Source: Sarea resinae
Taxonomy: Eukaryota
Direction: 5' to 3'
NCBI GenBank assembly: GCA_026026165.1
Contig: JAPEUD010000045.1
Location: forward strand, 124,001-188,000
DNA: 64,000 bases
Part shown: piece by piece, positions 1-46,993 of the stretch
Layout: every line of letters begins with the position of its first letter
Numbering within the stretch: position 1 is the first letter of the stretch
Made by a program: the position numbers and the translations under genes
The notes under the pieces: generated by a model
The model's input: only the letters and a program-made list of their open reading frames with translations
Told to the model about the DNA's origin: nothing
The model's database searches: none

Positions 1-3000
1 CCGTCTTCTGTCTTCTATTTGCTTTTGTCCTTGCTGCTTTCGCCCGTGGTCACCCTGCCATAGCCGAAGCGGGAGATCCCGACGCACGAGGACGACCAGG
101 ACGAGCATCAAGAGCTCCGGGACAGCACCAGCAGCACCAGCAGCACCAGGAGCACCAGGCTGCAGTGTACGGAGTACTGTACATTCCTCTGTACCCGTCT
201 CAGCTACTCTACTTAGTACTCATCGTAGTACTCGAGGACTCCGTAGTGGCGCTCTCACTCATCTCTCTCGCCGGGATTCAGAGCGAGAATGGGTAAAGCT
301 CCGGGGCCGAATCCCACGACCGTCTGATCGCTGCGGGATCCCTGCTACCATCCGTCCATCCATGGATATTCATCGGCGACCACATCGGGTCCGGATTGGA
401 CAGCACGTCCAAGTTACGTACAGTACGTAGTAGTGACCACCATTGGGCATTCTGGAGTGATGAGCGTTTCGATTGGAAGAGTACCGGAGTATTGGCTCGG
501 CCATCAGAAGCCGAGGACATCATTTCACCATCATCCGTACACGGTAGCAGTCGAACCTTATGTACCCGACTACCTTGCCTGGACCTGCCCGCGCACACAT
601 CGAACCTGACTCGCGCGGAGACAAAACGGCTGCCGCGACCGTTGCTGGTGCCATAGTCATTAGGGCGTTTTGAGTTTGTTCGAGCTGCGGGTGCCACATC
701 CCATCCCATCCCATCCCATCCATCTCGATGGCACGGACGGTGATTAGGTAGGCCTGGCCCTGCTGCAGCGGCGCCAGTGCGGTGCAGCTCAGTGAATCGC
801 CTCAGCACGAATATCAAAAGCAGAAGCTTTTCTCGATGCTCATGGCGATATTGGATATCGAGACTGAACGAGCCGGGCAGCCTTACTATTCCCATGATTT
901 GCACTATGACTAAAGCTCCTCGCCAATGGGATGTCCGTCGTATCTTGACTTCGCCTGCGGTCGCAGATAATGAGATATCTGCCCTTACCCAAATAGTAAA
1001 GTTCGTAGTAAGAATAGCAATAATTATGGGGTCGGCTGCCGGGTAGCATGGCATCAAACAATGGCATCAGTCGATAGGAGGCAGAGCAGAGATGAGATTA
1101 TCGATGAGCGGCGCTGGTTCTCGTCAGGTGCAGGAACGGAAGCCCTCGTCTGCATCTGATCTCGTCTCGACCTGTCTGTTATTCATACTGTTTCCGTTCT
1201 CGTGTCGTCGCAACGAACCTGAACTTTGGTCGAGAAGAAGTCGACCCGGCCGAATTTAGCCTCGACCGATATGCTCTGATCCAACCTAAAGTCTGTTCCT
1301 AGGCAAGCTCAGACCGTAGTCACCTCGTCCCTGCCCTCCCACGGCCATATGCTGCCCATAGGCATCCACATGCTCCCGCGATCCGCCCCAGTGCGATCCA
1401 CTCCGGATGCCATGTCGCATCAGGGCGTGGACTTGGGGCTTGGTGGCTCCTGGTCCTGGAAGGTATAAGGAAGAGCCGGCTCCTGTGGCGGCCGATCCTC
1501 CTGTGCCCAGCACTCGTACCGCTGTCCTTGATCGTCCACCAGCATCTGGCGTCTGCATTACCTTACATTACCTTGCCCGAACACCCCATGAGCTGCGGAG
1601 GAGTACTCTACACCGCGAACCGTTCGGCCTACAGGGAGGGTGCCGTACAGATACTTCGTACCTGCCCATCCCCTCCACTCGAGTCTGGTCTGGTCTGATC
1701 GCTCGCTCGCCATCGCCAGTCACTGATTGACTTGACTACCTGCGAAGACCTGTGGCCGCTGGAGCTCTTTTCCTCCCTCGCCCACGACGACTGCTGCTAT
1801 ACCCGCCACTATTATCACTGCTCCCTCTCTTTTCGCGTTGTCGCGTCTCTCGTTTTCCCTTTCCTTGGGCTTCTCTCCTCTCTCCTCCATCCTCCCACTC
1901 GCTCTCCGTCCTGATCCCGTGCCGGCTCTGCCAACTGCTGCAGTCGACAGCTACCGTATCTGCATGCGCCCCCCCAACGTCCAGGCGTCGTCGTTCTGCC
2001 GGTACCGTCCGCTGTGGTCCTGATCGTGGTCGACGAGAATTGACGCGACTCGGGCATAAACGTGGGCATTAATCATCAGCCAGACAAGGGACCGACTACT
2101 CTCTACCTACCTCTACCCACCTACTGCGCTGCTCACGCTCGACCCAACAGCAGCACCTTACCTGACCTTACCTTACCTTACCTGACCAGACCAGACCATA
2201 CCTGGCCACACCCACCGGCCCATACGGCAGCTTCCACGTCCAACGAATCCCAAGCCAAGCCGAATCCGTTCAATCCAGTCCCAGCCCGTCTGTCCTCCAC
2301 GCGAGCCCTCGCTAGGTACACGCTACATGGTATGGACCCATGATCCTTTCCCTTTTACCCTTTGCCTCTCGTTCTTTTCCTCTCTCGGACAAGTACCGTC
2401 ACCACCTCCTTCGTACCACGTCCTTCCCGGCCTGTCCCTCTGCACCGTCCCTTTACCGACATGTACACACGCACAACACCCTCCATCTCTCTTTGACCCT
2501 TACCCACACCCACGCACACGCTACTCGGAGTACTTTGTACTCGAGCCCGAGTACCTTTTCTGTCCGTTACCCTTCTTCATCTTTCACCTTGCACCTTTCA
2601 CCTTTCACCTTTCACCTTGCACACGCACAACACCCACGCACATATTTACGCGAGACAACCCGTCCCCATGCAAATACTCGCCCCAGCCCGCCCCTCCCAC
2701 ATCCACTTTCTGCCCTCTCCGCTCCACTACCTGACCTACCTGAGCCAACCTGAGCCTACCCGTCTATTCCCCCCCTCCCCGACTATTTCGTGGCACTGTG
2801 CCCTTGTTCGTTCTTCCATACTAAAGGCTTTTTTGACTCGTCTTTGCACTCCTTGCGCATACCCCAAACCATGTCTGGCTCATAACCCCCCCCCCCGCCA
2901 GATCTTCCATCTCGGTCCCCTTCTTCACCTGATCGCGAATCCTTGTCCCCTTCTTCCTGACCCTCGTCGGTCCAGCGTTACCGAGTAGCATCAACATTCA

Positions 3001-3160
3001 TGCTTGTTGTCGCATCTGCTCGCGCTGCTGTCTGTCTCTTCGCATCGCGCGCCGTTGCTTCTTGCTTCAATTGAACACGCCGTCGCCGTTGATTAGACTT
3101 CCTTTCCTGTCTTGACCTTTTTGGCCAGGTACTATCCTGTTTCTATTTGAGCGCTTTCGC

Positions 3161-5866
3161 ATGGTTTGTCCTCGCTCTTGCTCATTTCGCATCATCGTCG
3201 CATATCCCACCGTCGCGTCGTCTGCCGGTCTCTTGCATCATCTGCGCCAAGTTCGTGTGTAACTGACCGTGGCCTTCATTCGTGACAGCATCATCCCCAG
3301 CATCCTCAGCAAGGTCCTCCGCCTCAGGTGCAGAATCCTCGACCGCCGAGCATCGTACATCAACAACAACAACAACAGCATCATCCCAATTCGCCCCATC
3401 CGAGCTCAACCGCGCGTTCTCATCAACAAGGCGCGTTTCCATCGCCTCACGCGTCAGGGCACGGTGTGCCGTCGCAGCAGTCAAATTTTCCCCAGAGCGG
3501 CTCCCAATCCGGTGTTCACCCGCAAGAAATCCCATACTTTGCCGCGCACCAGGGCTCTTATAATACGCCGAGCGCCCCCGCATCCTACTCTTCGTCGGGT
3601 AAGTCTTTTTCCACGTTGAAATCAAGCCAAATATTCCTACCACATCAGTCTTCTCCATCTTACTATGAACATGCAAATGCCTCACCTGACCCTCGAGCAT
3701 CGCTTCTCTTTGAGCTGTAAGCTGACGATTGCTATCAGAAGCACCAGACCTCATGGCCGCCAAGCACATGAACCGGCCGGCTTATCCGCCTATATACCAC
3801 ACTCCTCAGTCTAACTCGCCAGCCTCGGTGGCGTCACCGCAGAGCCACGATCAGCATGGCCGGACAATCTATGCACAACCACCCTCACAACTTCCTCAAA
3901 CAATGTACGGCTACCCTCAATACCCGCCAATGGCACCCGCGAACCCTTCGCCGTACGGGCAACACCCGTCGCAACAACCGCATCCCTCTCTGACCTCGCA
4001 GCCTCTTCTGCTGTCCCATCAGCAGAGTCAACCTCAGCTCCAACATCAGTCCTCGCACAGCCATACTCCAGGAATGAAACAGAGCCCTCGAGCGCAACTT
4101 GCTCAGACGCCGCTTCAACGGCCACCATCAGGTCTGGGGCCGGCATCAAACCCCCCAAGTGGCCCACCTGGAAGCGCGAACAGCATGCATCCGGGACAGC
4201 AGACTGGTACCAATCCGAATGCGGCACCGGGACCGATCCCCGCCACCACCCCGCTCGTCGTTCGGCAGGATAACAATGGCGTTCAATGGATTGCTTTTGA
4301 ATATTCGCGCGACCGGGTCAAGATGGAGTATACCATACGATGCGATGTGGAGTCGGTCAACGTGGATAGCCTGAGTCAGGAATTCAAGACCGAGAACTGT
4401 GTATATCCTCGAGCATGCTGCAGCAAAGACCAATACAGAGGGAATCGACTGGTGTACGAGACGGAGTGTAACACAGTTGGCTGGGCTTTGGCGGAGCTGA
4501 ACCCCTGCCTGAGAGGAAAGCGCGGACTCATCCAGAGAGCTGTCGACAGTTGGAGAAACAGTAACCAGGATCCCCGGCTACGAAGCAGGCGCGTGCGCAG
4601 AATGGCCAAGATCAATCATAGAAAGCAAGTGGCACAGACGCAGAATCACATGGCCGGTCCAAGTGGTCCTAGCCCTGCAGGGGTCCCGACTTCAAGCGGC
4701 CTTCCGGCCGGTCCAGGGGCACGGCAGCCTAGCATGGGTATGGGGAACCCGCAACTACATCACCACCATGCCCATCATCCAGATGGAAGCGCACCAGGTG
4801 GAAGTGACGATGTTAGCGGTATGTTTCACCAGATGTGATGTGTTATTAGCAACCTGGGTTGGACGGAAACGGGAAATATTGTTTCATCTTGTAGCGAGAT
4901 TCCATGTATAATACTTTTTGTGCCCCGTACATGTTTGTAGGCTAATTTCTCTTGTCTCTCTTATAGCTCAAAGTGAGTACAACGGTGCCTCGCATCATCA
5001 TCACCAGACGCCCAGCGGACAGCCCGTTGCCAACCCCGCGGATGTGCGCCAGAGCCAGGTCTTTCATGGCTACCCGAGCTATCCACCCAATCCCAATGTA
5101 GGCGGTCCGGCAATGGCTCCTTCGATGCAATCTGGAATCGATCAGATCGGTGGACATGGACCTTCGACTTCCAATGCGGCCCCGGTTGCCTGCACCAAGG
5201 CTGATGACGATGACAACGTCGCTCTCTTCGGGGATCTTCCAGAGGCCAAGCGCCGGAAGTTTATACTCGTGGATGATCCCCACCGTGGGGCGAGAGTCCG
5301 AGTTAGAGTAACACTGGATCAGGTCGAGATGAACGAAATTCCGGACTCTTACCGCAAGGATCACTCCGTCTATCCTCGATCCTATTTTCCCATGCAGATG
5401 CAGTCGCCTCCTAGTTCTCCCCGAGGTCGCAGATTCTTCGATGATGACGACGACACAACCGGGAGTGATGGACCTACGAAGGGAAGGACACTTGTGCCGG
5501 TGCCTATGGTTGATGGAACAGAGGCAGAGGTGCCTACCCCCCGGCTTGGAAAGGCGAAACGGAGCAAGGAGGTCACTTTGAACGATCTGGGCTATCGCAT
5601 GAGCTGGAGCCAAAGTAGGGTTTTTGCGGGCCGGACGATGTTCTTGCAACGAGCGTGTAAGTCTTAACAGCACCTATCCAACGCCTTGTGATGTGCTGAC
5701 TTTGTCTGCTTCTGTAGTGGACGCATATCGAAACAAGATGAGGAGCACGATGGTGGCGGCGGGCCAGGACGTGTCAGCCGTGGCGCCCCACTTTGAGACC
5801 CGTGTTGGCAAGCGTAAGTGGCTTGAACGCGGTAGCCGAAAGTCGAAGCGTGATTCGACGGACTAA
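3161..5866 (+). CDS. Conserved fungal hypothetical protein with two copies of an uncharacterised domain (recalled as DUF8032-like) and Q/P/H-rich low-complexity regions; possible transcriptional regulator
   Basis: Hand-spliced exons 3161-3163 (ATG only), 3289-3598, 3739-4818, 4967-5656, 5718-5866. All junctions are GT..AG with branch sites and stay in frame, joining ORFs 3328, 3729, 4918 and 5624. Internal duplication: ENCVYPRA..CNTVGWALA..LIQRAVDSWRN versus DHSVYPRS..LNDLGYRMS..FLQRALDAYRN. Confidence 0.8.
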
Positions 5867-7855
5867 GTCGACGAATCAGCCTCAAAACAGACAAGTCAAT
5901 TGGATGAAGACACGAAAGAGGAGGATATCTTCGCGAAGACGGGAAAAAAAAAGCAAAGGAAAAGAAGGGAATAGGAGGGAAAGCGAAACAGGAATCAATT
6001 GGTTGGCTTGAGGCGCTAGGGAAAGGCAAATGAAACGATCGATTGTGGGTATCAAGTGACTGCGGCTGCGCACATCTCAAAATTGGAGCTATATCATTAT
6101 GCTGGCTGGAGGATCTCTTTGCTCGATGTCAGCGTCTTATCTTCTTCCTTTGTCTCTTTATCGCTTCTGCAGCAAAGATCTCTCTTTATTCTCTCATCCA
6201 TCTATACCGATGATCGCGGCACTATGGGCTGGCTGGCGGCACAGAAGCGGATGGCCTGTGGCTCATTGATGAGGGTAAATGCCTGTATCATCATTGTTCA
6301 TGAGGCCATGCATACGTGCATGTAGCGAAAGAGCGAGCGAGCGAGCGAGCGCGCAAGCGGCATTCGTGACCATGTCGAACTGGGGCAAATTGAAGCTCTC
6401 CTTCTATTTTCTTCTTTTCGTTCCTAACATCCATTCCTTCCATTAGAAGCCTACAAACCTGTTTGGCTCGAATAGAAATCCAATGACTTTCTTTTTTACT
6501 CTCGTGTAGTGCTACCACGCTCTAGATCTCGATACCTGAGATGACCACTTTCCTCCGTCCGTCCTAGGTCTTCGATCGGTAGGGTCCTGGTCCTTGTCGT
6601 GGTCATGGATCTGGATCTGGATCTGGATGTGGATCTGGCCCTTGTCCTGGTCCCGGTCAGATCCTTTCTGCGGTACCTTGACTTGATCTGGGTGGCCCCG
6701 CCTTGCCTTGCCTTGCCTCGCCTTACAGAGTAGTCCGTCTTACATAGTACACATCTACCTTGACCTTTCCCTGGAAGCGAGCAAGAGGAGCGGGGGCTCC
6801 CCATTTTACTCTGGTGACAGCCTGCCCGCCTACACAGTACTCTTACATAGTAGCGAAGGGACGGAGATCGACCACCTGGATTAGGAACCTTAATCCATCC
6901 ATCTTCAACCGGATCCGTTGTACCTCTTTCGGCCCGTCAACGAGGAGTCAACCACTTCCTACCGTGCCTTACTGCTGCACCGATTGTCTGATTTAGATGT
7001 GCTTCTCGAGCGAGATCGTTGCTCATGGCTTTGTTGGTGGTTGATCTCGAGAGTGACATCATACGACTCCGACACAAGGCTGAAGTGTGCTGCAGAGACA
7101 CAGGGTGTCGAAAATCAAGCCAAAAGGATAGCGCCCCCTAAAGGACTTGCTCTGAATCCGTCTACATATTGTATTTCGACACAGGGACCCTGGATCAGGC
7201 ATCCAAAGGCGTCCCAGGGAGTTCAGATCGGGTCAAACCAAGGATGCTCACGTACCCTCTCGCCATCTGCGCAGGCTGAGCCGGACGCATGGGTTTGGGT
7301 TGCTAGCTCAGCATGGCTGCTGCCGAGAGGCGATGCGGCTCGACCCAGTCCGTTACTCGGGTGAGGCTGAGCATTCGGGGTCGTCTTTCTCAACTCACCC
7401 GCTTCGTCTTCTGATATCTCTATGCATTTCTTGATTCCTACTTCCTCATACTCTTCTGCCTCCGACAATACACAGGTGTGAGAACCTTTCACCGAAGCTG
7501 GATATTGTGGCGAGATTCAAAGAAAGTTCACGTTTGGGCATTTTATTCTTATTTCTACTTACCACGGTCAATCTTCAACTACTAGGTTCTACGCAACTTT
7601 TGAGGTAGTTCGAATTTCTGCTAGCTACGAGTACCTCTTGGCTGATTTCAGTTTGGAGATAGGTTTCCAGGTTTGCGACGTGTCTCAAGACCAACGCGGC
7701 AGGTAGCTGGACCCTAGGAACGAGATAGCTTGCGATTGAATCCAGCGCCGGCTTTACATTCTACAGATTTGCATCCTCGGGAACACGCCATCATTGGTAG
7801 GACTTTGTATTGAACGTGTGCAACGACGGCGAACAGTTCCGCAAGCTTCGGCGGA

Positions 7856-10800
7856 ATGGATAAGAAAGATCTCCCTAAAGGGTCGAATTCAGACCACGCT
7901 ATCGTCCACCCCTTTTCCCGCTTACAAAGTGACACGAAAAGAGCCGGTGATGGAGAGGCCAACGACTATAGAGGAGAACGTAAGGGAAATGAGCCTTTGA
8001 AACTTCCAGGAGAAATGCGACTGTCCAGCCAGGCTGTCGTGCCTAAGGTTCAGAGATACAACTCCTCAGCTCCGAAAATACATTTCGATACTGATGCACC
8101 ACCCCTCTTAGACGCTGTACGATCGGGAGACTGTCTACTGGTCGATTCCTTAATCCAGTCCGGGGCTTCCGTTGATGAAAGGGATGCGCAGGGGAGAACT
8201 GCTTTAATGCAAGCTGTCAAAGGAGGGCGTAAAGATATATCTGAAATTCTACTCGAGAATGGCGCCGAGGTGAATGCCAAGAGTACATATGGGAGGACCG
8301 TTATGATGGAGGCCGCACAAGCAGGAAGTCTGGACATGGTCATGCTTCTTATTAAGAATGGCGCCGAGGTGAACGCCGAGGGTAGATTTGGGGAGACCCC
8401 CCTAATGGAGGCTGCACGTGCAGGAAGTCCGGACCTGGTTATGCTTCTCCTCGAGAATAGTGCTGAGGTGAACGCTAAGAATGTATATGGGGGGACCGCC
8501 CTGATAGAGGCCGCACGTGCAGGAAGTCCGGACGTGGTCATGCTTCTACTTAAGAATGGCGCCGAGGTGGACGCCAAGAGTGTATATGGGGGGACCGCCC
8601 TGATAGAGGCCGCGCGTGCAGGAAGTCCGGACGTGGTCAAGCTTCTTCTCAAGAATGGTGCTGAGGTGAACGCTGAGAGTAGGATTTGGGGGACCGCCCG
8701 GATAGAGGCCGCACGTGCGGGAAGTCCGGACGTGGTCAAGCTTCTTCTTAAGAATGGTGCTGAGGTGAATGCTCAAAGTGCGGAGGGGGACACTGCTTTG
8801 ATAGAAGCTATAAGAGCGCAAAACCTGGAGATACTAAATATCCTCCTACAGAAAGGTGCTGTTGTGAATACTGTAAGTGAACTTGGGACAAGCGCTCTGA
8901 TAGAAGCTACAAGGACGCAAAACCTGAAAATAGTCAATATCCTCTTAGAGAAAGGCGCTTCTGTGGACACCAAGACTTTTTTGGGGAAAATTGTTCTGAA
9001 GGCAGCTGCTGATACAGGGAGTGAAGAGATACTCCGAGTCCTAATCAAGAATAGCGCCGATGTGAATGCTAGAAGTGCTGTTGGGACGACTGCTTTAATG
9101 GAAGCTTCTCACGTAGGAAGTGATGAGTCGGTCAAGCTTTCAGTCAACGAAGATGCTACACCAGTCCGCGATGATGTCCTGAGAGGGCAGCAAGATTGGA
9201 AGCGCCGACAAGCCGAGGAAGATGCAAGGCCGTTTCGCAGTCCGCGCGAGCGCGAGAGGGAGCAGACCCGAATAACTGGTTTCAGCCCTCCGGCGATAAA
9301 TCGGGACGACCGCCTCATGAACGAGACATATGGTGAAGAAGGTAGATCTGGACGAAACGCTCCAAGAAAGCATCCTGCAAGCAATCCTGAGCAGCCTCTA
9401 GAGACAAACTCAAACCAGCCATCGTTCAATTCGTTTAATACAGCCTCAAGGGCCATACTACTTGCGAGTTATCCATTAGACAGTGCAGCCACTCATGGGT
9501 CGGGTCGACTGGGGATCCCCACTCCACTGGTATATGCTTCAATGCCGCCTGAGGAACATACAGCAGATGAATCTAGAAACGGATCTGGATCTATGCCTCT
9601 TCACCGATCAATATCCGGGTCTGTCTCAATTTTCACATCAGACTCTATCCATTCCGAAGTCTCTGAAGAACCCTCATTGGTAGAGTCCGACGATTCATCT
9701 ACCAGCAACGAAAGCTCTCTAGAGAACACCCCGGATTCCAGCAGAAGCCGTAGGATCAATGTTGATAACTTTGGAACTCCCGAGACAGCTCGTCCACCTA
9801 GGCAACCTCTTCCAGAGGAGTTGGAGCAAGATGAACGGTTAACAAATCCAGCGTCCTATTTTTCGCGTCTTGAACGCCTGGAAGCGTCGGTGTTCAAAAG
9901 CTCTGGGTTATCACATCTTTGGAAATTCCCTACTCGAAAACCAACGAGGCGAGACGCATCTGAGACTCTGTCAAAGATGTGTCCCAAGATCGACCAAGGT
10001 GGATGGGCAAGCTTACCAGGCTCTGTCCGGGGCTGGTTTACTGATTTACTTGAATCGCACAACATTATGTCAAAGTTAATGGCTAACATTGAGCGAATGC
10101 GCGGAGAGAATTTCTGCGTTAACTCAATCAATACGATTGTTGTTGATTCAAGAAGGTCGAACTTGGCTTCACTGTGCCGTATCAGCATCGATCAGATTGC
10201 AAACCTCTGTGCCGAATTCGAAGCGATTCCAGATGAAATCTTTGAACAGGGCGGCTTAGATCCGTTCGTCAGTAATTCGGCGATGACGAGCTTTGATCTG
10301 CGGCTTGGAGGATCTTGCCTGGCTATATGTAAGCCACTTGGATTACCGCTCGGAGAGATCATGAAGGAAACATGGCGACTTACGCCTCTTATACTTGATC
10401 TTGCGATCATTTCTTACTGCGGAGCCCACATAGAGAGGTTCGATGAAGCTTACATCCAGCAGTCTTTGGATTATTTCGATCTTTCGGACATGGTCAATTC
10501 GAGCCCCACGAGTTCCAACAAGCATATAATCTTCCATTGCCGTCGACTGCGTTGCTTGGATGAATTTCTTGGCGGTAGAGCCGTTTGGACATTCGAATCT
10601 ACCGACTCGGATTTGCCTCAAGAAAGCCTTCCAGACCTCTATCTTGGGACAGATATTCAAGAATTTGCGGATGTCTGGGGTCCTGTATGGAGTAACAGAG
10701 GTTTGTTAGGGCGCGATAATCAAATATACAGGACTGGAGGAGGCTATATCCTACCATGGCCTACCGAGCAAGATTCTCCAGGGCTGGAAGAAGAAGAAAT

Positions 10801-12019
10801 ATTCTGCCATTGGATAACCGGGAAGACAGCCATCTGTCAACAGTGGCCTCTAGCCTTTCAAAATTTTGAGCTCCTGAAGCATAGACTCATAATAGGATCG
10901 GGAAGTCACCGGCTCAAAGAAAATCGTGCTTGCAAGCTGCGACCAGAAAATATTCGACAACAGCTAAAGTCAAGAAATTGTCTCTGGAAGGCTGGGACTT
11001 CCAACTCCGTGACCTACAAAGAGAGTCAAGCCGTTCAAGGCCAGATTGGCGGCATGGGTATCAGCACAGGGTTTTCCATGACTTACAAGCGGAGACACGG
11101 AAATTCCTTGAAGCAGGCTTTGGTCGACAAATGGGCTAACAAACCAGGTACTCAGAATCCAAGAGAGCTCGAGAATTGGTATGGGCTCGAAGTGAGTGCC
11201 TGTACTGGTAATGCTCGAAGAAGAAGGCTCGTTGAGATTATAGGCTCAACCATAATGATTCGGAGCCTGCACTTTGCCCTCACTGTCAGCAGGTCTTCTC
11301 CTTGGATGGCGTCTTTTATCGAGGCCACTACCAGCTCTGACTACATGGCGTTCAGTGAGCTCTACGAGGGCCAACCAGAATGGCGCGAGGAACTAGGCAA
11401 GCTCGTTTCTCACTGCTTGGATTTCTTGGCCGACACGGGGACGGATGCTAACCAAAGCCTATCCGCCTTCTGGGTCGACAAAGCATACATTGAATACCTA
11501 GCTGTCTTTTACCGCTCTAGCCATAGCTGGACAGGCATGTTAAACGACACGCGGGAGATATGCACCATGGCCATCCTGACGGAGACCTGTCTCGAGCTTC
11601 CCCACTGCTCTGGCGCTAATGTCTGCGGCGCCCCATTCCCGTTGCATTGTTCTCCTTCCGTGAGGCGCACCCAGGGCAACCCGATCCTGGAAACGTACCT
11701 CGAGATCAACGAACAGGCTCCGATGCCGCCGCGCCTCCGTCGTAGCGCTCGCCGACGAAACCACTGGGACACGAGCGAGCTTTCGTCCGACGCACGCTTT
11801 CCGCTCCGGAACGGCCGGCTCGGCGTGCTACGGCCGCTGCGGCACGGCAAGGTTCTGATGGAGTGGATGGCCACGAACCCCAAGGTCCAAGAGGCCAAGG
11901 AGATGTGGCGGCAAGGTTTCCTCGGACGGCCGTTGGAGCCGTGTCATTGGGAGGGCATGGACGCCGACGACGAGGCTCGCGTCATGAATCGTATCATGGT
12001 TTTTGTCATGGGTCTTTGA
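7856..12019 (+). CDS. Ankyrin-repeat protein (~11 N-terminal ANK repeats) with a low-complexity linker and a large uncharacterised C-terminal domain
   Basis: Uninterrupted 1387-aa ORF with 33-aa repeats of the type GxTALxEAAxAGxxDVVxLLLKNGAEVNA. The C-terminal ~730 aa look globular but match no family I can name. The exact start codon is uncertain. Confidence 0.85.
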   Translation: MDKKDLPKGSNSDHAIVHPFSRLQSDTKRAGDGEANDYRGERKGNEPLKLPGEMRLSSQAVVPKVQRYNSSAPKIHFDTDAPPLLDAVRSGDCLLVDSLIQSGASVDERDAQGRTALMQAVKGGRKDISEILLENGAEVNAKSTYGRTVMMEAAQAGSLDMVMLLIKNGAEVNAEGRFGETPLMEAARAGSPDLVMLLLENSAEVNAKNVYGGTALIEAARAGSPDVVMLLLKNGAEVDAKSVYGGTALIEAARAGSPDVVKLLLKNGAEVNAESRIWGTARIEAARAGSPDVVKLLLKNGAEVNAQSAEGDTALIEAIRAQNLEILNILLQKGAVVNTVSELGTSALIEATRTQNLKIVNILLEKGASVDTKTFLGKIVLKAAADTGSEEILRVLIKNSADVNARSAVGTTALMEASHVGSDESVKLSVNEDATPVRDDVLRGQQDWKRRQAEEDARPFRSPREREREQTRITGFSPPAINRDDRLMNETYGEEGRSGRNAPRKHPASNPEQPLETNSNQPSFNSFNTASRAILLASYPLDSAATHGSGRLGIPTPLVYASMPPEEHTADESRNGSGSMPLHRSISGSVSIFTSDSIHSEVSEEPSLVESDDSSTSNESSLENTPDSSRSRRINVDNFGTPETARPPRQPLPEELEQDERLTNPASYFSRLERLEASVFKSSGLSHLWKFPTRKPTRRDASETLSKMCPKIDQGGWASLPGSVRGWFTDLLESHNIMSKLMANIERMRGENFCVNSINTIVVDSRRSNLASLCRISIDQIANLCAEFEAIPDEIFEQGGLDPFVSNSAMTSFDLRLGGSCLAICKPLGLPLGEIMKETWRLTPLILDLAIISYCGAHIERFDEAYIQQSLDYFDLSDMVNSSPTSSNKHIIFHCRRLRCLDEFLGGRAVWTFESTDSDLPQESLPDLYLGTDIQEFADVWGPVWSNRGLLGRDNQIYRTGGGYILPWPTEQDSPGLEEEEIFCHWITGKTAICQQWPLAFQNFELLKHRLIIGSGSHRLKENRACKLRPENIRQQLKSRNCLWKAGTSNSVTYKESQAVQGQIGGMGISTGFSMTYKRRHGNSLKQALVDKWANKPGTQNPRELENWYGLEVSACTGNARRRRLVEIIGSTIMIRSLHFALTVSRSSPWMASFIEATTSSDYMAFSELYEGQPEWREELGKLVSHCLDFLADTGTDANQSLSAFWVDKAYIEYLAVFYRSSHSWTGMLNDTREICTMAILTETCLELPHCSGANVCGAPFPLHCSPSVRRTQGNPILETYLEINEQAPMPPRLRRSARRRNHWDTSELSSDARFPLRNGRLGVLRPLRHGKVLMEWMATNPKVQEAKEMWRQGFLGRPLEPCHWEGMDADDEARVMNRIMVFVMGL
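8255..8790 (+). repeat. Tandem 99-bp near-identical ankyrin-coding repeat units (about 5)
   Basis: Recurrent blocks such as gcaggaagtccggacgtggtc and aagaatggcgccgaggtg / aagaatggtgctgaggtgaac at 99-bp spacing. Confidence 0.9.
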
Positions 12020-12289
12020 TCCTCCCGCGAAGATCGAAGGTGGGGTGTAAGTTGAGTGTTACCTCTTGAGCTATGGTATTCGTCGTTCATGGGCCTTTGC
12101 CCCTTGATCTTTCCGCAGAGAACTCGGGGATTTTTCGAGTCGAGCGGGGTTGTCTCTCTTGAGCTCTCCTCTCCTATCCTCCTCCTACCTCCTCACGCCT
12201 CTCTCACAATGCACAGAGACCCCTTCAACGCCGATCTACCTACCTACCTTAGCCAGAAGAACCAGCGGAACCAACAGAACCAAATTTAA

Positions 12290-13447: not shown

Positions 13448-16039
13448 TCATCCTGCAGATTAGCACCCACACTCCTGTCGTGTCGTATCCATCAAGTAGT
13501 TTCGTTTACCCATGCCTATTCCATACCACTCCCATCGTACACAGCAGGCTCCTTTGTACCTGTACTAGGCTCAGTATCCTCTGGTAGAAGTGGCTGACGA
13601 AGAGACCTACCACTCTTGTGGCGCTTGTTCTTTCCGTTACGTCGGCGGGGAGCGGACTGCGGCACATTAAACACCCCGGGGACTGCGACCATGCTTGAAT
13701 CGGTGCCCGAAACAGCGGAAGCTGCGCCCTCGGGCACAGGCGTCCAATCCAAGGACAGAGGCGGTGGTGAAGCCGAAGCTGAGCGTGGTGTTGTGCGCGG
13801 TGCTGGAGGAAGAAGAGGTGGGGCATTTTCCTTGTCGAAACTTCCTTCGGAGCGTTGCTGGAGAGTATCCGACGCGGACTCAGGTTTGGCTCCTTGGCTG
13901 TTTGACAACGACAGAATGCCAGTGGTGGCCTTCTGAAACGAGTTGACTTGCGGGGTCAGAGGCGGGGACTGGTCCAACAACAAGTCTGTGCCGGGATCCG
14001 TATCAGGCGAGTTGCTCGTGTGTGCCGGAGCCTGATGCGCAGGTATGATGGCGGGGAGACCAGAGTAAACTTCGACGTTATCCCCATCGTCCTCAGAAGA
14101 CCATGAGTGATGTCTAGTGCGTTTTCCCAGCATGACCTTGGTGAGCTGGCCAGGCAAGCCGTGGTCATCCTCATCTGCATCTTTGTCCCAAATGTTACCA
14201 CCTTGCTCATTGTCAGAGAGATCCAAGATCTCATCGAGATCACTGTCGCCATTCCCTTCGTCGGATTCAGCTTCATCGTCGGCATCACTTTCACCAATGG
14301 CGAGACGATAGTCTGATCCTTCCAAACCTTTTTTGAGGAAATTGGCCATAGGACCCTTGGACTTGATAAAAGGCATCACTAAGTTTGATTTCGCCTTGTC
14401 TTTTGTATCGGGCCCGTTGCTATTGTAAGCCGAGGAAGGATCCTGGCGAGAAGCTGAACCTTTCATCCTACGTTGGCCGATTGATACAAGTTCCTTGTGG
14501 CTGATAGATGGAGTGAATGGATCTCCCTCGTTATCAGCGAGATCTTCACGGGTAGATTCACGATACTCGGAGCCAAAGTCAATCTCAGGGTCTTTTCCCT
14601 TGGGGCGGATTCCCTTTCGAACCTTCTCGTCGAAGGTCTTATCGGGATCAACCTTCTTCGCTGAGGTTTGAGGATGGGCAATATTGAGAGGTGTGTACTT
14701 TGATAACATAACATTCATCTCCCGTGCATTACCCGCAGCCCGGTGCGCTTTTTCAGCCTTTTCCCTGGGAAAGCCTTCAAAGTTGAACGTCCGAAGCTTT
14801 TCTGTCATGATGATGGGGTCAGTGTTGCTGGATTCGCTTTTGAAAAGGCCTCTCACCTTCACTCCGGTAGAAAAATTGGAAGGTAGCAAAAGGCCCCTCG
14901 CCCTTCTTGAATGGCGAATATGTGACAATGCGAACATTCTTGGAGCCTTTGACCAGGGATGTTTGTCCGAACCTGGGCTAAAGTTAGACAGTTTCGGAGA
15001 GCTTTGACATGAACAAACCCAGTAGTATGTGTAATGTCCTTTTCGGCACCAGCCATATCAACATCGTCCAGCTCACCTTCTTTGTGCTTGGCGCGGAAGT
15101 TGTGGTCCGTGGACTTTGTTCCAAGTTGAATCCGCTCCAGCTTGACCACGATCTGGCCAGCTTTCGACGTCTCGACGTTTGTCTTTTCTCCCTCTTTCAA
15201 GGATGCCGAAAAATTCATAGCTTCAATTAATTCATCCTCATCCTGGGCTAACATATCTCCAGCAGAGCTATGGGCCGCTGAGATCAGCATCTTGTCGAAT
15301 GAAGCTTCAATGCCAACATCTTGAAAAAGCCAGACATGCTCTCGAAGCTTGCCATCCTTGCCTTCGACCCATCGGGTTTTGAATACTACCATTCCATCTG
15401 GCTCGTTAAATTCCTCATCTTCTGGGTCAAGATATATGATCAATTTGCGCTCGGGCTTCTCGCGGCCATCGAGGTAAAGAGACGCCAAGAGATGAAAAGG
15501 AGGGTGCAGACTCTCAGTGGGGTTCCGGCCTCGTTGTCCCGGAATAGGGATGCGGACGGGGGATAAAGTCTTTGATCGTTTTCCACCTTGAAGCTTGAGG
15601 CCTACTTGAAGGTTGTACTTCGGGGGGTCGCAACTGGAACTGTTGTTAGCTTTCTCTTACTGTCTCATGATCGTAATCAGGAAAGGGGTACCGGTTGCCT
15701 AAACACCCAAGCGATGTTATTAACGGTTCACTTGTTTAATGAAGAAGGCCACTTGCATTGATCCTCGTCCTTGCCTTCGTCCATGTCCTCCAAATTTGCA
15801 TCAAGAAACCCTAGCTTATCTGGACCGTGATTCAGTGTTTCAAAGGCATGGGCAGCGGGCGTATCATCTGCGATGAGAGGAAGCTTTGGTTGGATAGACA
15901 CTCGAAACGACACATTGGTTTCAGACTGAATATAGCATGAGACCTTGTTGTGACGGCGGAAGTGCTGCGGACTCCATTCCTGCAATGCCTTCCCATCGCT
16001 GGTGGTGACATGCACCGTAACACCACGTAATTCGGGCAT
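13448..16039 (-). CDS. Hypothetical protein with N-terminal DUF7918-like domain and acidic/disordered C-terminus
   Basis: MPELRGVTVHVTTSDGKALQEW..VSCYIQSETNVSFRVSIQP; LLASLYLDGR; spliced exon FGQTSLVKG..GPFATFQFFYRSE. Joins ORFs 15728-16039, 14859-15488 and 13516-14937. The 3' end is 13448 if a last intron is spliced, otherwise 13516. Confidence 0.7.
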
Positions 16040-17154
16040 TCCTGGTAGCCAATGAGTCGAATCTGCTTGAGCTTAGGGAAGTTTTGGGAAGTAGCGACTT
16101 GGCTTAGAAGACGATAAGACCCAAAGCCCTTGGGCTCAAGCCTTACAGAAGACGTAATTCGCTCCCTCGGGCCTTGCGTCTGACTCCGAGAGCCTATCAG
16201 TATATTTCGCCGCGACGGTTTGGTTATGTAACCAAATTGAGACGTACAAAGATTCTGCAAATTCAATTCTATCAATTGGGGACGAGGGTTTGTCTGGTAA
16301 AGGCGGGTACAGGAGACAATCTTGCTGGATTCGATGAGAATATGGTACGGAAGCGTGAAACCGCGAAGTTGGTGAGAAGATGACGCGTATGGTTGAGTGG
16401 CAGGTGACAAGAGCAGATAGATCTCAGGTCACTTAAGAACGCGTTTACTAGTGTGAACACGTTAACACTTGAGGCTCGGCGCTGACACGTTCTTGGGCGT
16501 GGAGTTCAGACGAAACATTAATGCTGCTCGGTCTCTACTTACCTGCATTCTCCCGTGCCATCTGGCATCCTCGGCGCCGCATGGAACTCCATCTGCGTGC
16601 AGGGAACACCGCAAGATCATGCACGGAGCCATGGTGGCGTGGATGGGTAGATAGGCACGCTCTTCGTCGCTGGCCGTGTGGACTTCCGTTCCGGTTCAGG
16701 TCCTTGCAGATGTGGAGATAGCATCTTGGGAGCGCCATTCATGGTCTTTGGAAGGTGCGATTTGAGGTGTATGTGAAGACGGTATCTACCAGAGGAAGGC
16801 GCAAACGGCGGATATGTCTTCACACGGAAGCGGGATCCCGGCATTGAAATGGAATGGAATGGGAGGTGGCGAGATGGTCATCGCGCGGTAGGTAGGGACG
16901 AACATGACGGAATCGTTTGTGAATAAAGTAGACGGTAAATTAGATAGGCAGGTAGGCAGGCATCTTTCTATGAGAGGCTAGATGCAATGCGAGAGAAATT
17001 GTTCGACTCTCCTCGGCACATCACAATGGATAGAATCCAGACAAGGTATACAGACCAAAACGCCATCCCTGACACTCCCGGTCTTCAAATATGGATACTG
17101 ATAGATCCTGACCCCCCCGCTCCAGCTCAACCTGACGCCCACCGAAGAATATTT

Positions 17155-46949: not shown

Positions 46950-46993
<44 letters not shown>
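46950..46993 (+). repeat. Poly-G homopolymer (44 nt) in divergent promoter region
   Basis: Direct count of the G run. Confidence 0.9.

Follow-up and report, generated by a model that had tools for sequence, protein, structure and literature searches.

A mosaic ankyrin array joined to a widespread unnamed fungal domain in a Sarea resinae gene

The window, by which we mean the whole 64,000-nucleotide stretch of Sarea resinae DNA that was analysed (part of contig C84 of a 25.5 Mb assembly), has fungal gene content, including Spt8, a PLAA/Doa1-like gene, a myosin and other eukaryotic genes recognized by Pfam. An open frame of 1,401 codons (7814–12019, plus strand) within it encodes a protein in which an ankyrin (ANK) array, at about residues 80–430 of 1,387, is followed by a linker and by a C-terminal domain, here called X (Table 1). 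Database records start the same open reading frame (ORF) at the second methionine of the region, giving 1,334 aa, and ankyrin families are the only Pfam matches in the 1,387-aa version. An earlier note on this DNA had correctly placed the array at the N-terminal side; it missed the widespread unnamed domain that makes up the C-terminal 730 aa and is recurrently fused behind ANK or TPR arrays. Neighbouring genes at 3286–5700 and 13516–16072 look conserved and have no match in the Pfam copy used, the second being syntenic with a related metagenome locus (L063, below). The genome contains no fewer than 22 other copies of the 78-bp repeat upstream of the gene (80–93% identity, unrelated flanks), which matches neither a tRNA nor an Rfam family. 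Seven copies, spread over six contigs, are less than 20 kb from an ankyrin locus (19 such loci compared), where about 3% would be expected per copy (rough P = 3e-5, both lists being lower bounds), and two copies adjoin a 416-aa ORF that has no Pfam match (L056:1778-3025; G000:C79).

Table 1. Features of the ankyrin–X gene and its surroundings, in window coordinates.
Feature	Position	Strand	Remarks
78-bp dispersed repeat, MITE-like, short terminal inverted repeats	7106..7183	.	About 670 bp upstream of ATG
ORF with ANK array, linker and domain X	7856..12019	+	Uninterrupted; 1387 aa counted from first ATG
Ten in-register 33-aa ankyrin units	8159..9148	+	Further partial unit just upstream
Five core high-identity ANK units, 99 bp each	8258..8752	+	DNA identity 77-90%
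Six variable hairpin quartets (codons 8-11 of each unit)	8279..8785 (span)	+
Quartet KSTY	8279-8290	+
Quartet EGRF	8378-8389	+
Quartet KNVY	8477-8488	+
Quartet KSVY	8576-8587	+
Quartet ESRI	8675-8686	+
Quartet QSAE	8774-8785	+
In-frame 111-bp piece like 3' part of DUF7514 gene	9181..9291	+	Compared with G000:C24:501130-501237
Ser/Pro/acidic low-complexity linker, presumably disordered	9292..9820	+	From sequence; no Pfam match
Domain X, 732 aa, unnamed fungal family	9821..12016	+
Gly-turn amphipathic beta-hairpin, 25 residues (X399-423)	11015..11089	+	Low model confidence; candidate membrane-inserting element
Conserved neighbour without Pfam match, synteny marker	15018..16045	-	45% identity to gene near X in L063
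Spt8, synteny marker common to L063	17158..19550	-

Tandem Repeats Finder delimits a 99-bp-period array at 8256–8769 (5.2 copies, 84% matches). The five core units share 77–90% of their bases and 61–88% of their residues; the sixth unit, that of QSAE, reaches only 58–63% identity, and the non-core units of the ten have 42–74% identity to any unit. About five almost identical repeats had been claimed, and the array is indeed real, in frame and of 99-bp period; ‘almost identical’ overstates 77–90% at the DNA level and the protein values just given. All six residue quartets listed in the earlier note were recovered exactly at their units, and the GxTAL turn that it set behind them is exact in three of the six. 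By our own ungapped calculation (not T-REKS), the internal similarity Psim is 0.86–0.88 over the best four units (132 aa), 0.83–0.84 over five and 0.645 over all ten. High internal conservation (HiC) is defined in the accessible part of PMC4986451 as Psim ≥0.85 over ≥100 aa, and in that of PMC13449251 as Psim ≥0.7; the array passes the former on four units and the latter as well. The units have a mosaic history: of 36 pairs formed by nine informative sites, 22 are incompatible among units, as expected under repeated unequal exchange (recurrent mutation being possible), and identical stretches between units reach 33 bases. In a genome-wide DNA search the ANK units matched no other place, which gives no indication of exchange with NLR genes.

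Among the five core units, codons 8–11 form the most variable four-codon window, accounting for 28 of the 96 pairwise residue differences (P = 0.002 with this window fixed, P = 0.055 allowing for window choice); the beta-hairpin that they cover is named as part of the ANK binding face in section 17 of PMC4986451. At the nucleotide level, 8 of 12 hairpin columns vary as against 29 of 87 non-hairpin columns (Fisher P = 0.052), so the focus on the hairpin that the earlier note described is a peak of variation and not a confinement. The hairpin has a pN of 0.39, compared with 0.11 for the remaining part of the unit; pS over the whole array is 0.27, and the pN/pS of 2.2 within codons 8–11 rests on about one synonymous change. 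Counted as minimum changes, 8 non-synonymous changes over 9.9 hairpin sites compare with 14.5 synonymous changes over 24.3 array-wide sites (Fisher P = 0.43), and the per-site selection check that had been proposed thus yields no significant non-synonymous excess over the array's synonymous rate (P = 0.43 and 0.29, five units giving little power). These counts point to a scaffold under purifying selection and to a hairpin that changes at an approximately neutral rate or somewhat faster; positive selection at the hairpin is neither shown nor excluded. The analogy with NLR sensor repeats holds for array structure, in the HiC cut-offs and the mosaic units, and is at most tentative for hypervariability by positive selection.

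In unit 5, two scaffold positions that are invariant among the other core units are changed (G>W and L>R), which fits relaxed constraint. An ordinary recent repeat expansion under such constraint, in which the exposed and least constrained hairpin drifted, the array served as scaffold or targeting element that does not recognize non-self and X had a housekeeping or regulatory role, is the main rival account of the gene, though less likely than the one favoured below. It is consistent with a hairpin pN not significantly above pS, with the damaging-looking changes in unit 5 and with the relaxed purifying plus positive selection given for new repeat copies as a general regime in the accessible part of PMC5120217, whereas the incompatible site patterns suggest repeated exchange over one event; the evidence from X that bears on it is given below.

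Downstream of the repeats, the DUF7514-like piece agrees with its counterpart on contig C24 at 81 of 111 bases, with an exact run of 24, and at 29 of 43 residues (genome-wide E = 1.3e-9 for DNA and 3e-7 for protein). The counterpart ORF has a DUF7514 domain, and the source run gives a partial match too. Judged by this likeness, the piece is probably a captured host-gene fragment.

Domain X consists of a helical bundle (about residues 10–200), an alpha/beta middle part and a C-terminal part. Searches of clusters at 50% identity returned 928 relatives at E ≤ 0.001 and 247 at 1e-30, of which the best 150 of the 928 were inspected; the named relatives among the matches listed are, as we take their classes to be, all ascomycetes. 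Pfam, PADLOC and NCBIfam contain no family that matches more than one of 52 X members, and X has no sequence match to solved structures (PDB). AlphaFold2 models of X are confident (pLDDT 86; pTM 0.75 and 0.79), and gave no fold match when searched as models of 732 and 530 residues, which are longer than advised, the hairpin part being barely probed. The present X looks intact, since it retains 67 of the 75 positions conserved at ≥80% in 100 homologues. It is single-locus in the genome, with no second, unfused copy found (a lower bound). Six loci (L064 and L066–L070) carry a divergent X subfamily whose ORFs also encode a ubiquitin-like domain at the N-terminal end.

The candidate hairpin of X, modelled as two strands, shows a strongly patterned sequence: across 100 homologues hydrophobic residues fill 437 of 489 cells at its five outward positions and 65 of 490 at its five inward ones, where S, T, G, Q or N take up 414 of the 490. 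Its length is 24–26 residues in 88 of 101 rows, and conserved Tyr, Lys and Arg residues lie at its base. Alternation of hydrophobic with S/T/Q/G residues is typical of membrane-inserting hairpins in beta-pore-forming proteins, and a single 25-residue hairpin has the length needed to span a bilayer, a necessary and not a sufficient property. By period-2 moment it comes 12th among the 9-residue windows of X, although none of the top 20 is richer in S/T/G/Q/N; since other windows exceed it, the pattern alone is no proof of insertion. The nearest named clusters in the ESM Atlas are gasdermin, at 0.76–0.77 for whole X and 0.84–0.88 for residues 1010–1250, scores that lie below 0.9 and, with 139 shared features against 170 typical of true family members, amount to a lead only. 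The gasdermin profile PF04598 matched none of 52 X members at E up to 10 in a Pfam copy that lacks the bacterial-gasdermin family PF26164. Pore formation by X, as far as sequence goes, is a lead only.

X occurs in several settings. Pfam matches were found in 25 of 149 X homologues, all of them outside X, and 124 had no Pfam domain. The partners are ANK (6), DUF6590 (5), kinase (4), Zn-cluster (2), C2H2 (2), TPR (1) and five others once each (n = 149); longer hits add PHD, Clr5 and FHA, and some of these various pairings may be gene-model fusions. In seven of the 149 the ANK (6) or TPR (1) array lies N-terminal to X, as in the present gene. One of these, P0123, is a NACHT-ANK-X protein, with NACHT just under the curated cut-off, NPHP3_N well above it and a P-loop motif present, and in two others (P0062 and P0150) X is preceded by ANK and a winged-helix segment. 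Together with the present gene, eight rows carry repeats, and placing them on the X tree takes eight changes, each required by well-supported branches, so that the repeat–X fusions look separate, truncated gene models possibly hiding repeats elsewhere. The tree was built by a quick method from 149 rows covering ≥480 profile positions, 26 of 175 being left out.

Conserved arrays recur among these fusions: identity over the best three units is ≥0.6 in five of the seven other repeat-X arrays and in 2 of 18 ANK loci of the genome (Fisher P = 0.007). The threshold was picked after the data had been seen, and the control loci, selected by likeness to the array, were scanned ungapped and exon by exon (19 examined, one unscorable); both high-scoring controls have a P-loop motif. 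Such recurrence in separately arisen fusions, and the occurrence of X behind NLR repeats too, argue against the ordinary expansion described above. That account gains from the accessible part of PMC13449251, in which 5.59% of repeat proteins without an ATPase are HiC, as against 22.04% of those with one, so that arrays of this kind without an ATPase are uncommon and not rare; it gains also from the nuclear-type domains among many X partners and from the syntenic single locus at which X lies.

This synteny appears in one of ten related metagenome loci. In L063, X lies beside the same two genes, Spt8 (64–86% identity) and a homologue of the 15018–16045 gene; this X (L063:9128-12100) is 36–39% identical to ours, has no ankyrin repeats and is in the opposite orientation relative to Spt8, and the ORF upstream of it has no Pfam match. 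It is also split over frames as by at least three introns, where the present gene is one uninterrupted frame. An X with the same neighbours and no ankyrins marks the array as a lineage-specific gain at this locus, and we infer that it was acquired in the present lineage, perhaps at a local rearrangement. On the tree, the present X sits on a long branch (1.02, compared with 0.05–0.57 for tips in the nearest clade) and is nearest by path, at an unresolved fork, to an 11-row clade without labelled repeats (seven rows Pfam-scanned, four showing no precomputed domain). Six of the ten related loci supplied 14 ORFs for scanning (48 listed), including the upstream portion of one X gene; among the 14 there was no NLR or HET gene and one ANK ORF.

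The reading that we favour, at a probability of about 0.45, is that the gene encodes a compact sensor-effector that works like NLR repeats minus the ATPase. It would be a lineage-specific chimera, in which an N-terminal ankyrin array and a short captured fragment of another gene of the host were added to an older X-family gene at a conserved position beside Spt8. Repeated unequal exchange would then have multiplied and mixed the middle of the array, leaving the scaffold alike and the hairpin residues of the binding face different. The array might bind a partner and switch X on through the flexible linker, much as NLR sensors do, with no ATPase between; X would provide the output, most probably at membranes, where it would oligomerise and insert its amphipathic beta-hairpin, and the outcome could be a defence or non-self cell-death response. 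Several observations speak against this. The hairpin has no significant non-synonymous excess and the changes in unit 5 resemble relaxed constraint; as to an immune role, most X proteins have no array, their partners include kinase, DUF6590, Zn-cluster, C2H2, PHD, Clr5 and FHA domains, and X is single-locus at a syntenic site, unlike expanded immune families. The scanned ORFs of related loci, with no NLR or HET gene among them, the ANK units, with no DNA match elsewhere, and the modest Atlas score weigh the same way.

[quoted passage not shown] In that case the gene would be an NLR lacking its head, or the sensor partner in a pair, and the DUF7514-like piece would be another captured bait. X does occupy the position, C-terminal to the repeats, of putative integrated domains (accessible part of PMC12258605), NACHT-ANK-X and WHD-ANK-X homologues exist, a host-gene piece appears to have been captured, and the present X has a long branch. 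We nevertheless judge it improbable: there is no partner NLR or NACHT remnant in positions 1–12100 or among the 22 window ORFs scanned, the upstream gene (about 3286–5700) is unrelated, no second, unfused X was found in the genome to mimic, and the conserved positions of X are largely retained (67 of 75). Still less probable is that X works as an enzyme or binds metal for catalysis, its activity being gated or directed by the variable domains N-terminal to it. The near-invariant H203, C245, H330, C371, C461, D576, C590, C602, H709 and E711 of X would suit such a role, as would its varied N-terminal partners, whereas no enzyme family is matched by more than one of 52 members in Pfam, NCBIfam or PADLOC and the pattern-conserved hairpin would be left unexplained.

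An assembly artefact in the array or fusion deserves hardly any credence: the region stands in the assembly twice, C123 (G000:C123:30001-103102) duplicating part of C84 over about 73 kb with no difference except a poly-G run length near window 46950–46993, which marks assembly redundancy here, whereas overlapping source-run contigs tile the array at flank-like depth (328–375 for the longer pieces) with no variant letters, one contig runs from 8720 through the linker and X, and the frame is open over 1,401 codons. The gene is present in one of three listed sequencing runs, and that run is possibly the assembly's own source.

Extended from the compact sensor-effector to the whole family, the proposal would make X the output module of an undescribed fungal defence or cell-death family, with a fold without PDB match and membrane action by one hairpin, placed recurrently behind reshuffling ANK or TPR arrays in NLRs and in ATPase-free two-part receptors that capture host-gene pieces; in this full form we hold it to be unlikely. 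To our knowledge, accounts of fungal immunity centre almost exclusively on NLRs, gasdermins, HeLo and HET domains. Annotation is lacking for about half of the terminal domains of NLRs (PMC4986451, accessible part), and X, with its 928 relatives, its hairpin and eight separate array fusions, is a candidate, open to test, for an effector or bait class that is still missing. The present gene illustrates how an ankyrin array and a captured fragment of a host gene might come together at a conserved locus to form a receptor. Should ordinary expansion be the right account, X would still be an unnamed fungal domain family that merits a profile and a structure.

Compared with known systems, the gene is not a fungal NLR (STAND) by Pfam, which finds no NACHT or NB-ARC in the ORF, and no intact P-loop motif occurs in six frames of 1–12100, in agreement with the earlier note. 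Its layout also departs from that of NLRs, which have C-terminal superstructure-forming repeats: here the repeats are N-terminal and X is C-terminal. The same note's ‘non-NLR’ architecture is apt for the present gene and limited to it, since X also lies behind an array in a NACHT-bearing protein and the family thereby overlaps NLR architectures. Like the ANK HiC NLRs of fungi (Podospora Pa_3_8560 and Pa_2_8180; accessible parts of PMC4986451 and PMC13449251), the array has 33-aa units of high internal identity, is mosaic and varies on the beta-hairpin; unlike them, the gene has no NACHT or NB-ARC and its repeats are N-terminal. Inner-helix positions 21–22 barely vary here and vary strongly in the genome's own NACHT-ANK gene (L038:1473-4961; G000:C100), an NLR with 14 conserved 99-bp repeats in which variation falls at hairpin position 11 and at positions 21–27. 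Fungal NLRs also bear non-canonical (integrated) domains C-terminal to ANK, such as SPRY, zinc finger and PKinase, which are possible sensors or decoys (PMC12258605, accessible part). The extra domain C-terminal to ANK and the NACHT-ANK-X order of P0123 recall these proteins, from which the present gene differs in having no nucleotide-binding domain; X, matching no Pfam family, would escape Pfam-based domain lists. The portions of PMC12881547 and PMC11138114 that were available show no gene of ANK-X build.

Known N-terminal effector domains (HET, HeLo, PNP_UDP and others) are absent from the ORF, neither it nor 52 X members has a HeLo or HeLo-like Pfam match, and the score of X against the four-helix-bundle death domains of HeLo, MLKL and CC lies within helical-bundle noise. 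X differs from gasdermins in having no sequence match to solved structures and only one such hairpin found, and is presumably some three times the size of the gasdermin pore domain. Like the gasdermins (RCD-1, HET-Q1 and bacterial) and single-hairpin beta-pore-formers, it has a flexible Gly-turn hairpin with alternating faces, and its flanking conserved aromatic and basic residues follow what we take to be the gasdermin or beta-pore pattern.
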